A DNA stretch of 61,102 bases. Origin: Candidatus Yanofskybacteria bacterium RIFCSPHIGHO2_01_FULL_43_32 (GTDB taxonomy: Bacteria; Patescibacteriota; Minisyncoccia; 2-02-FULL-40-12; GWA2-44-9). Both the position numbers and the translations under genes were made by a program. The notes under the pieces are model-generated. The model saw only the letters and a list, made by a program, of their open reading frames with translations. It was not told the DNA's origin and did no database searches. The stretch lies in contig MGJF01000004.1 of the NCBI GenBank assembly GCA_001794125.1, forward strand, positions 1 to 61,102, in the 5' to 3' direction. Positions 60,758 through 61,027 of this stretch are shown here, in pieces. The first letter of the stretch is position 1, and each line of letters opens with the position of its first letter.

Positions 60758-61027
60758 GGAGGCGTCGCATAGTGGTCTAGTGCGCTCGCTTGTCCCGATT
60801 TTTACAAAATTGGATTTTGATAAAAATCGAGGATCCTCGATAGTTCTATTTTCTCTGGCGCGGAGGGGTCGCATAGTGGTTTAGTGCACCGCCTTGGAAA
60901 GGCGGCATGTCCGAAAGGGCATCGCGAGTTCGAATCTCGCCCCCTCCGCACTGTAGAAAATGAATTATCGGGAGAAAGGCGGCAGGCTCGAAAGGTACCG
61001 CTGGTTCGAATCCAGCCGCCTCCACCA
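60758..61027 (+). pseudogene. split tRNA-like gene (5' half 60758-60792, 3' half 60974-61027) interrupted by 181 nt containing an intact tRNA
   Basis: GGAGGCG/CGCCTCC-ACCA acceptor, D arm and GCTGG-TTCGAAT-CCAGC T arm; anticodon stem pairs poorly. Confidence 0.55.
60862..60948 (+). tRNA. tRNA-Ser(GGA)
   Basis: GGAGGGG/CCCCTCC acceptor, CCGCC-TTGGAAA-GGCGG arm, variable arm, G discriminator; CCA not encoded. Confidence 0.95.

Follow-up and report, generated by a model that had tools for sequence, protein, structure and literature searches.

A probable tRNA-replacement cassette nested inside split tRNA-Ser(GGA) genes of Parcubacteria

Integrative elements are a well-known case of mobile DNA that enters a transfer RNA (tRNA) gene and leaves tRNA function intact, and archaea can use split and intron-bearing tRNAs by means of a splicing endonuclease. 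Here, we describe a tRNA-Ser(GGA) gene of Candidatus Yanofskybacteria that is split in its anticodon loop by a small insert, the cassette, which itself carries an intact tRNA-Ser(GGA); the locus lies near the end of the 61,102-nt stretch of contig MGJF01000004.1 that was analysed as a whole (the window). For bacteria, group I and group II introns are the sole disruption of otherwise uniform tRNA genes listed in a review (PMC4033280), and for the candidate phyla radiation the literature searched contained no account of tRNA introns or of nested tRNAs. The tRNA-Thr locus of Caldiarchaeum, composed of a 5' tRNA fragment, a 1.8-kb recombinase-encoding insertion and an intact tRNA (PMC3293823), is the nearest precedent in concept.

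As in the Caldiarchaeum locus, a tRNA fragment stands beside an intact tRNA of the same identity with inserted DNA between them, and heterogeneity among populations or lineages shows a process under way. However, that locus is archaeal and its insert encodes a recombinase, whereas here the host is a bacterium and a tiny insert carries the tRNA itself, flanked by both halves of the split gene. With integrative elements (prophages, integrative and conjugative elements, genomic islands and cis-mobilisable elements) the cassette shares the tRNA target, the anticodon or T loop as the site, the coexistence of occupied and empty relatives, and an insert-borne sequence that would preserve tRNA function. 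It differs from them in its size (160-195 nt), in having no integrase or other open reading frame (ORF), in supplying a whole tRNA instead of a 3' segment, in having ends without a repeated core, and in leaving the target gene split and decaying. Group I introns of bacterial tRNA genes likewise place extra sequence in the anticodon loop and occur sporadically among relatives; the cassette, in contrast, has no catalytic core, has the wrong boundary nucleotides, consists half of tRNA, and lies between exons that are not kept. In rRNA operons, long leader-trailer helices flank the 16S and 23S rRNAs and are cut by RNase III. A covarying flanking helix that could make a stable RNA excisable is common to these operons and the cassette, but that of the cassette flanks one tRNA, measures about 12-25 bp and sequesters the discriminator base, and its cleavage is putative. 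A geneless insert of <200 nt that splits the anticodon or T loop and carries a whole tRNA between covarying flanks is a form not described in the searchable literature.

Taking all of the evidence together, we consider it probable that the insert is a portable tRNA-replacement cassette and that the outer halves are relics of the gene it replaced. Members of the cassette family occur in at least four lineages of Parcubacteria. In every case both the carried tRNA and the host gene are tRNA-Ser(GGA), and the host gene is entered at one of two points, in the anticodon loop (34/35) or in the T loop (55/56). Once split, the outer gene is not maintained as a tRNA.

In the window, the outer gene lies on the forward strand, as do all parts of the locus described below, downstream of pyrG, which ends at 60707. 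Its 5' half (60758-60792) comprises the acceptor strand GGAGGCG, the D arm, the CTCGC strand of the anticodon stem and the loop nucleotides TTG, and ends after nt 34 (in full, GGAGGCG TC GCATAGTGGTCTAGTGC G CTCGC TTG). The cassette occupies 60793-60973, is 181 nt long, contains no ORF, and runs from TCCCGAT to ATCGGGA. The outer gene resumes at nt 35 with a degenerate and chimeric 3' half (60974-61027; GAAA GGCGG C AGGCTCGAAAGGTACC GCTGG TTCGAAT CCAGC CGCCTCC A CCA), which ends in CGCCTCC-A-CCA. The outer acceptor strands pair at 7/7 positions. Within the cassette, ARAGORN identified an intact tRNA-Ser(GGA) at 60862-60948, which scores 57.6 bits with Rfam RF00005 (gathering score 29). All of its stems are paired, its variable arm ATGTCC-GAAA-GGGCAT has a folding energy of -7.3 kcal/mol and its discriminator is G73, while CCA is not encoded. 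A first-pass annotation made from the letters alone had proposed the two halves with their pairing acceptor strands, the 181-nt insert with its bounding motifs and the intact tRNA within it, and each of these could be confirmed and placed. In addition, a 9-nt direct repeat, TATCGGGAG, occurs at 60753-60761 and 60966-60974, directly before each outer half, and 3 of the 12 ATCGGGA sites of the window lie within 220 nt at the nested locus.

The four cassettes, described below with their hosts, follow a common plan. Hairpin 1 comes first and the end motif then occurs again; a leader, an entire tRNA-Ser(GGA) and a trailer make up the rest, and the cassette ends are kept as T(T)CCCGA ... (C/T)GGGA. 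Hairpin 1 (60793-60833 in the window, with a CGAUUUUUA..UAAAAAUCG core) is found in all of them with stem sequences that differ (CGAUUUUUA/UAAAAAUCG, CGAUUUGU/ACAAAUCG and CGACUUAU/AUAAG.CG). The leader strand (60836-60861) and the trailer strand (60949-60973, ending in ATCGGGA) were delimited with the minimum-free-energy fold and RNAalifold; in the former, 60836-60861 pairs with 60949-60972 and the resulting helix stacks on the inner acceptor stem, so that both the hairpin and the enclosing stem noticed at first were recovered. The precursor folds at -123.1 kcal/mol (z = -7.06), and 0/200 shuffles fold as well. The three loci with the cassette in the anticodon loop (window, L170 and L175) share one folded architecture.

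Leader-trailer pairing was scored on the 51 distinct tRNA genes contained in all of the sequences fetched. In the window, the leader pairs with N73 plus the trailer at 10/12 positions, and 47 other tRNA genes reach 1-8/12. Only 4/51 genes reach 10-11/12, namely the three cassette tRNAs and the tRNA-Ser(GGA) of L005; the uninterrupted resident genes show 2-5/12. RNAalifold recovered the cloverleaf plus 12 extension pairs from the four cassettes, and 7/12 of these extension pairs stay paired with both sides changed. The bounding motifs pointed out in the first-pass annotation are indeed present at both ends of the insert; however, the CGGGA of the trailer covaries with the internal motif copy (CTCGAT, at 60836-60841 in the window, TCCCGAT and TCCCGC), whereas pairing of the trailer with the TCCCGAT at the first base of the insert is not supported by covariation, that motif being used within hairpin 1. 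No second copy of the cassette was found in the 61-kb window, and its read depth is that of a single copy.

The relatives' loci, denoted here by L numbers, were retrieved by a ranked PyrG protein search followed by contig look-ups. The first scans of PyrG loci, in genome and metagenome contigs, yielded, among the matches listed, mostly distant relatives without a conserved neighbourhood, and L005 alone was useful. Empty sites were found in three lineages. In L182/L183 (PyrG 86%), an uninterrupted tRNA-Ser(GGA) gene is the immediate downstream neighbour of pyrG and is preceded by the same flank, CTCTGGAAAAATAG..TATATTTTGCG; it has the stem CTCGC/GCGAG, the arm GTACC-GAAA-GGTAC and G73-CCA. The uninterrupted gene of L181 (PyrG 93%) has the stem CCGCC/GGCGG and the arm AGGCTC-GAAA-GGGCCT, and L178 (PyrG 88%) has the same flank with other genes between pyrG and the tRNA. 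These uninterrupted genes are canonical and score 52.8-58.9 bits with Rfam. The flank is kept upstream of occupied and empty sites alike (L170, L178, L181, L182 and L169). Because an uninterrupted gene stands behind the same flank in relatives with PyrG of 86% and 93%, comparison of these loci shows the cassette to be an insertion and not an ancient intron; the state before insertion would have been an ordinary tRNA-Ser(GGA) gene downstream of pyrG. The end of the L181 contig (about 1770-1974) is an inverted-repeat join in which the body of pyrG is followed by the reverse complement of its own end, the flank and the tRNA. An assembler artefact is the probable cause, and the L181 tRNA and flank were taken as sequence only. 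In the L178 lineage, L177 carries at its contig end (4913-5014) a tRNA-Ser(GGA) with a corrupted acceptor 3' strand that ARAGORN does not call, which is either a strain variant or a contig-end error.

Occupied sites were found in three further lineages. Four independent assemblies, L170-L173 (PyrG 88%), are identical across the locus and carry the cassette at L170 5759-5953, in the order 5' half ..CTTG, TTCCCGAT.., inner tRNA-Ser(GGA), ..TTATCGGGA and 3' half GAAAGGCGG.. with G73-CCA. The DNA past the outer 3' end of L170 is the empty-site sequence; thus, only the cassette was added. In L175 (PyrG 91%), a 5' half is followed by a homologous cassette (2656-2816) with a different inner tRNA-Ser(GGA), which has a standard class-II D arm, and by a trailer ..GCGGGA; the outer 3' half is deleted after 9 nt, so that GAAAGGCGG alone is left before unrelated DNA. 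The most distant host, L005 (PyrG 66%), carries a 175-nt cassette (6005-6179) in the T loop of another tRNA-Ser(GGA), with the arrangement GTGGG TT / cassette / CGAAT CCCAC. The 5' flank of the L005 cassette is homologous to that of L175 (52/78 identical), and TTCCCGA, TGAGCGCAGT, GCGAGCACA, GCAATCCC and ATGGC are shared. The inner tRNA is canonical in 4/4 nested loci, with Rfam scores of 59.7 bits in L170 and 60.4 bits in L175. L169 (PyrG 91%) has a 5' half identical to that of the window, and its sequence stops precisely at the TTG.

Diverged copies of the insert flanks, retrieved at 80% stringency, are also present on other contigs of the same samples. Their 5' junctions are with other Ser-type 5' halves (e.g. 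..GTGCACACGCTTG/ and ..ATTCCACCGCCTTG/, the slash marking the junction), and their 3' junctions with well-formed Ser 3' halves (e.g. GAAAG/CGGGTATACCGCAAGGTATCG); one such contig runs into a different inner tRNA start. A sequence resembling hairpin 1 (window 60790-60836) also occurs in contigs of runs X4, X5 and X6 without a preceding Ser 5' half, and in one of them a tRNA-like start, GGGCCCGTAGTTCATC, leads directly into TGTCCCGAT and then ..TCCTCGATTCGAGGCGAATCGGGGGAC. These contigs could represent short tRNA-less cassettes or insertions in other tRNAs or loops. The region after pyrG itself varies among close relatives (L084, L169, L174-L180, L184 and L185), containing GGDEF, LemA plus an M48 peptidase, EamA, unknown genes or the tRNA locus; its highly variable content marks it as a recombination-prone spot.

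The recurrence of the cassette bears on the possibility that tandem tRNA-Ser genes underwent a single local rearrangement or duplication and then decayed as pseudogenes, with no mobile cassette involved. The inner and outer genes are indeed paralog-like and the halves are mosaic, and tRNA 3' fragments adjoin tRNA-Ser genes elsewhere, for example in L062. However, the same flanks and ends occur in four lineages down to a PyrG of 66%, at two insertion points and with different inner tRNAs, clean empty sites exist in close relatives, and diverged copies are present in other community genomes. This already disfavoured explanation is therefore quite improbable, and the comparison of relatives, which the first-pass annotation had proposed as a test against simple tandem decay, revealed empty and occupied sites and a recurring cassette family instead. 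In the L062 arrangement (2745-2970), a degenerate tRNA 3' part lies about 130 nt downstream of a tRNA-Ser(GGA) and duplicates the 3' end of that gene (AATCCCACCCCCACCGCA / AATCCCATCCCCACCGCA); this looks like a scar of the attachment-site (att) type and of a kind different from the cassette.

Since tRNA words are common to many community members, similar tRNA sequences might have been chimerically joined during assembly, and every assembly ends within a few hundred bases past the nested locus. The latter is in keeping with a word depth that is very high in the tRNA parts and in the segment 61029-61082. Against a chimera, exact Logan contigs cross both junctions in the independent runs X1, X2, X4 and X5 (e.g. 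60763-60949 and 60920-61060), X6 has exact contigs over each junction stretch, and X8 has them over the 3' junction only. The insert-specific depth (4.6, 3.2, 9.2 and 10.4) equals the flanking single-copy depth, and no contig linking 60792 to 60974 was found among the Logan contigs of four runs. The same PyrG is present on seven contigs, and three assemblies are identical across the locus. A homologue search with a minus-strand ORF across the locus recovered a strain variant, P0001, which keeps the layout despite three substitutions; an exhaustive HMMER search with this ORF gave only generic ORFs over ordinary tRNA genes. Together with the same architecture in assemblies of other species, these data refute an assembly artefact for practical purposes, and the read-level check suggested at the outset thus uncovered no misassembly.

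The segment at which the assemblies break is of some interest in itself. Extending over 61029-61102 (about 95 nt further in L001), it has a word depth of about 100-1300, versus about 6 for the genome, in four metagenomes, and is found behind differing upstream sequences. A 97%-identical copy occurs in the wastewater RNA-seq run X21. Downstream of the uninterrupted L178 and L182 tRNAs, the layout is like that of 61029-61102 with a different hairpin sequence. The segment matched no Rfam family and no transfer-messenger RNA (tmRNA), and it may be a conserved small RNA or repeat. A permuted tmRNA at 61000-61102 was considered on the basis of weak Rfam hits and rejected, as ARAGORN found no tmRNA.

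In six intact genes (three inner and three uninterrupted), the anticodon stem is paired at 5/5 positions, the variable arm is paired, with folding energies of -5.8 to -9.2 kcal/mol, and the discriminator is G73. The outer genes depart from this pattern in every locus. In the window, the rejoined outer gene has an anticodon stem with two mismatches (pair, wobble, mismatch, mismatch, pair), an unpaired variable arm (0.0 kcal/mol) and A73, defects of stem, arm and discriminator that had been noted in the first-pass annotation and that set the gene apart from a functional tRNA-Ser, in which the anticodon stem and the long variable arm are paired and the discriminator is G73. The outer gene of L170 has an anticodon stem of the form wobble, pair, mismatch, mismatch, pair and a D-stem mismatch; that of L175 has lost its 3' half and so has no anticodon stem to score; and that of L005 shows an anticodon-stem mismatch and acceptor-stem mismatches after rejoining.

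The origin of the window's defective 3' half can be traced. Positions 60974-60995 are of the L181 type (22/22 identical, including the GGCGG stem strand and the AGGCTC arm strand), and 60989-61027 are of the L182 type from CGAAAGGTACCGC onward, including the GGTACC arm strand, the T arm and the acceptor strand. The crossover lies in the shared CGAAAGG (60989-60995) of the variable loop, and the variable arm is unable to pair because the crossover joined an L181-type and an L182-type strand. The 5' half matches that of the uninterrupted L182 gene at 33/35 positions, that of L169 at 35/35 and that of the inner tRNA of L170 at 34/35. The outer 5' half of L170 is also mosaic, its first 15 nt being those of L178 and nt 20-31 being CTYGC-like, and the acceptor type that is inner in the window is outer in L170, and vice versa. 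Such patterns suggest that the tRNA halves have recombined homologously more than once, and they show that the outer gene is not under selection as a tRNA.

The state of the outer gene also bears on an intron-like or split-tRNA arrangement, in which the transcript would be cut at 34/35 and religated, yielding two tRNA-Ser(GGA) species. The split is precise, the acceptor strands pair at 7/7 positions, ARAGORN calls the sequence rejoined by in silico removal of the insert a tRNA-Ser(GGA), the structured flanks could hold the halves close to each other, and L170 retains a well-formed outer 3' half with G73-CCA. However, the outer gene is damaged in every locus, differently in the window, L170 and L005, and L175 is without a 3' half; a fixed recombination has destroyed the variable arm in the window, and A73 stands in place of G73. 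The variable arm is the main identity element for seryl-tRNA synthetase. No Rfam match to Intron_gpI or to group II introns was obtained at E<=10, and the insert has 94 non-tRNA nt. Group I introns have a catalytic core, P3-P9, of about 200 nt or more, and their 5' exon ends in U and the intron in G; here, the 5' exon ends in G (60792) and the insert in A (60973), and no alternative boundary restores TTGGAAA. The archaeal and eukaryal bulge-helix-bulge has two 3-nt bulges with a 4-bp helix between them that joins the intron start with the 3' exon start. No such element is present, as TCCC, CCCG, CCGA and CGAT cannot pair with GAAA, AAAG, AAGG, AGGC or GGCG, and both insert boundaries abut the same helix end. 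Moreover, the organism is a bacterium, the same cassette sits in the T loop in L005, and the outer tRNA would repeat the anticodon of the inner one. Splicing of the outer tRNA is thus very unlikely. Of the two interpretations offered at first, the tRNA-within-tRNA arrangement holds as a description of the layout and falls as regards a spliced product, whereas an integration that replaced a decaying tRNA is supported by the uninterrupted gene in L182/L183 and L181, the canonical inner tRNA and the damaged outer gene. The recurring cassette family, the structured covarying flanks and the recombinant outer 3' half go beyond what had been noticed then.

How the cassette came to its sites may be approached through its junctions. 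Insertion took place precisely in the two 7-nt loops of the tRNA gene, the anticodon loop and the T loop, which are the classical sublocations of integrase att sites. In addition, head-to-tail joining of the cassette ends gives a 14-15 bp palindrome, ATCGGGA(T)TCCCGAT, and occupied and empty sites are patchily distributed among close relatives. All of this would suit a mini-element that a classical tRNA-targeting integrase left behind or mobilised in trans (a cis-mobilisable element), with the cassette ends as att arms. However, the junctions ..CTTG/T(T)CCCGA and ..CGGGA/GAAAG have no common core or overlap and no part of the tRNA is duplicated, no integrase is encoded in or near any of the four loci, and the helix covaries rather than conserving its sequence, which suggests a folded nucleic acid and not protein-binding arms. 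We therefore regard this origin as unlikely. The neighbours of the cassettes contained no recombinase domains, just as the 181-nt insert itself has no ORF. Six pattern scans of viral contigs returned either nothing or chance coding-sequence matches without a nearby tRNA, and the phage and plasmid collections gave matches of generic tRNA-Ser genes to the inner tRNA only.

Other mobile systems were compared as well. Short inverted ends (TCCCG..CGGGA) recall miniature inverted-repeat transposable elements, but a target duplication is present in 0/4 loci. Hairpins and the lack of duplication fit IS200/IS605-type hairpin elements (PATE), which insert 3' of a fixed short target; the left-flank targets of the cassettes differ (..CTTG versus ..GGTT). 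Integron attC/attI recombination was rejected because the junctions do not match G/TTRRRY, and a serine-recombinase or IS607-type crossover because no central dinucleotide is common to the junctions. A GIY-YIG gene at 56591-56896 (+) encodes a bare catalytic domain (Pfam 6.1e-14) with no link to the locus, and a role for it was likewise rejected; two lineages encode small GIY-YIG proteins of this catalytic-domain-only kind no more than about 4 kb from the nested locus (the window and L171, 7109-7295). Insertion appears to be specific for 7-nt loops of tRNA genes and to leave no target duplication, so that a trans-acting recombinase or a hairpin-directed enzyme would be the likeliest agent. A tentative possibility along these lines is that the cassette is a minimal ORF-less mobile element of a new class, with an entire tRNA as its cargo, that homes to the 7-nt loops of a gene for the same isoacceptor, kills the resident and supplies the replacement. 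A folded hairpin, as single-stranded DNA or RNA, would then be recognised by some enzyme, and the leader-trailer helix would serve both mobility and tRNA release. In a rarer variant of this idea, Parcubacteria would process the nested transcripts into two RNAs.

If the insert is a portable replacement cassette, as we favour, the inner tRNA would be the working tRNA-Ser(GGA). Upstream of the outer gene lies a promoter-like site of the resident gene (60718-60746, +; TGGAAA-17-TATATT with a TG extension), and upstream of the inner tRNA a weak internal one (60817-60844, +; TTGATA-16-GATAGT) that is a consensus match only; the inner tRNA may be transcribed from the retained resident promoter, from the internal one or from both. 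A terminator-like GC hairpin follows the outer 3' end (61053-61071, +), and an analogous hairpin follows the uninterrupted L178 and L182 genes. The leader-trailer helix on the acceptor stem may act as a portable processing signal, and double-strand cleavage, RNase P with 3' trimming, or both could free the inner tRNA from any host transcript. Spread and turnover between related genomes would occur largely by homologous recombination in the flanking tRNA halves, which would give rise to mosaic halves such as the 3' half in the window.

Several points weigh against this reading. Neither a target duplication nor a core common to both junctions nor an enzyme gene at the loci attests to an insertion mechanism. 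With full cassette sequences at n=4, the covariation counts are small. Between loci, parts of the flanks are better conserved than the inner tRNAs, an observation that a simple picture of one element with one cargo does not explain. In addition, the window, L170 and L175 share the mismatch between the 5' ..CGC and the 3' GGCGG (60787-60792 / 60974-60983), strands that would form 4 pairs if their register were slipped, leaving an 8-nt loop; shared ancestry of the donor cassette or a constraint could lie behind this. The RNA runs held generic tRNA words only, and three metatranscriptomes of the same study contained nothing from the locus; the expression and processing of the inner tRNA, and the silence of the outer one, are predictions from DNA. 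Finally, the inner tRNA was judged to be the working copy within 61 kb, and further tRNA-Ser(GGA) copies of the genome would lie outside that view.

Concerning the wider window, the neighbours GroES, GroEL and PyrG are bacterial, and the closest named relatives of its PyrG are Candidatus Yanofskybacteria, within Parcubacteria. A region at 12001-18000 has a G+C content of 0.315-0.355, compared with about 0.43-0.47 elsewhere, and a high GC skew, and may be an island of foreign DNA.

Taken together, a cassette of <200 nt, complete with a replacement tRNA, splits a bacterial tRNA gene within the anticodon, and this arrangement recurs across Parcubacteria. Standard tRNA finders call the inner gene only and assemblies tend to break at the locus, and in genomes of the candidate phyla radiation the outer halves could be mistaken for split tRNAs or introns during annotation. 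Should the cassette move as such, it would be about the smallest self-compensating insertion imaginable and a natural form of tRNA allele replacement, and its covarying leader-trailer helix may reveal how tRNA precursors are processed in these reduced bacteria.

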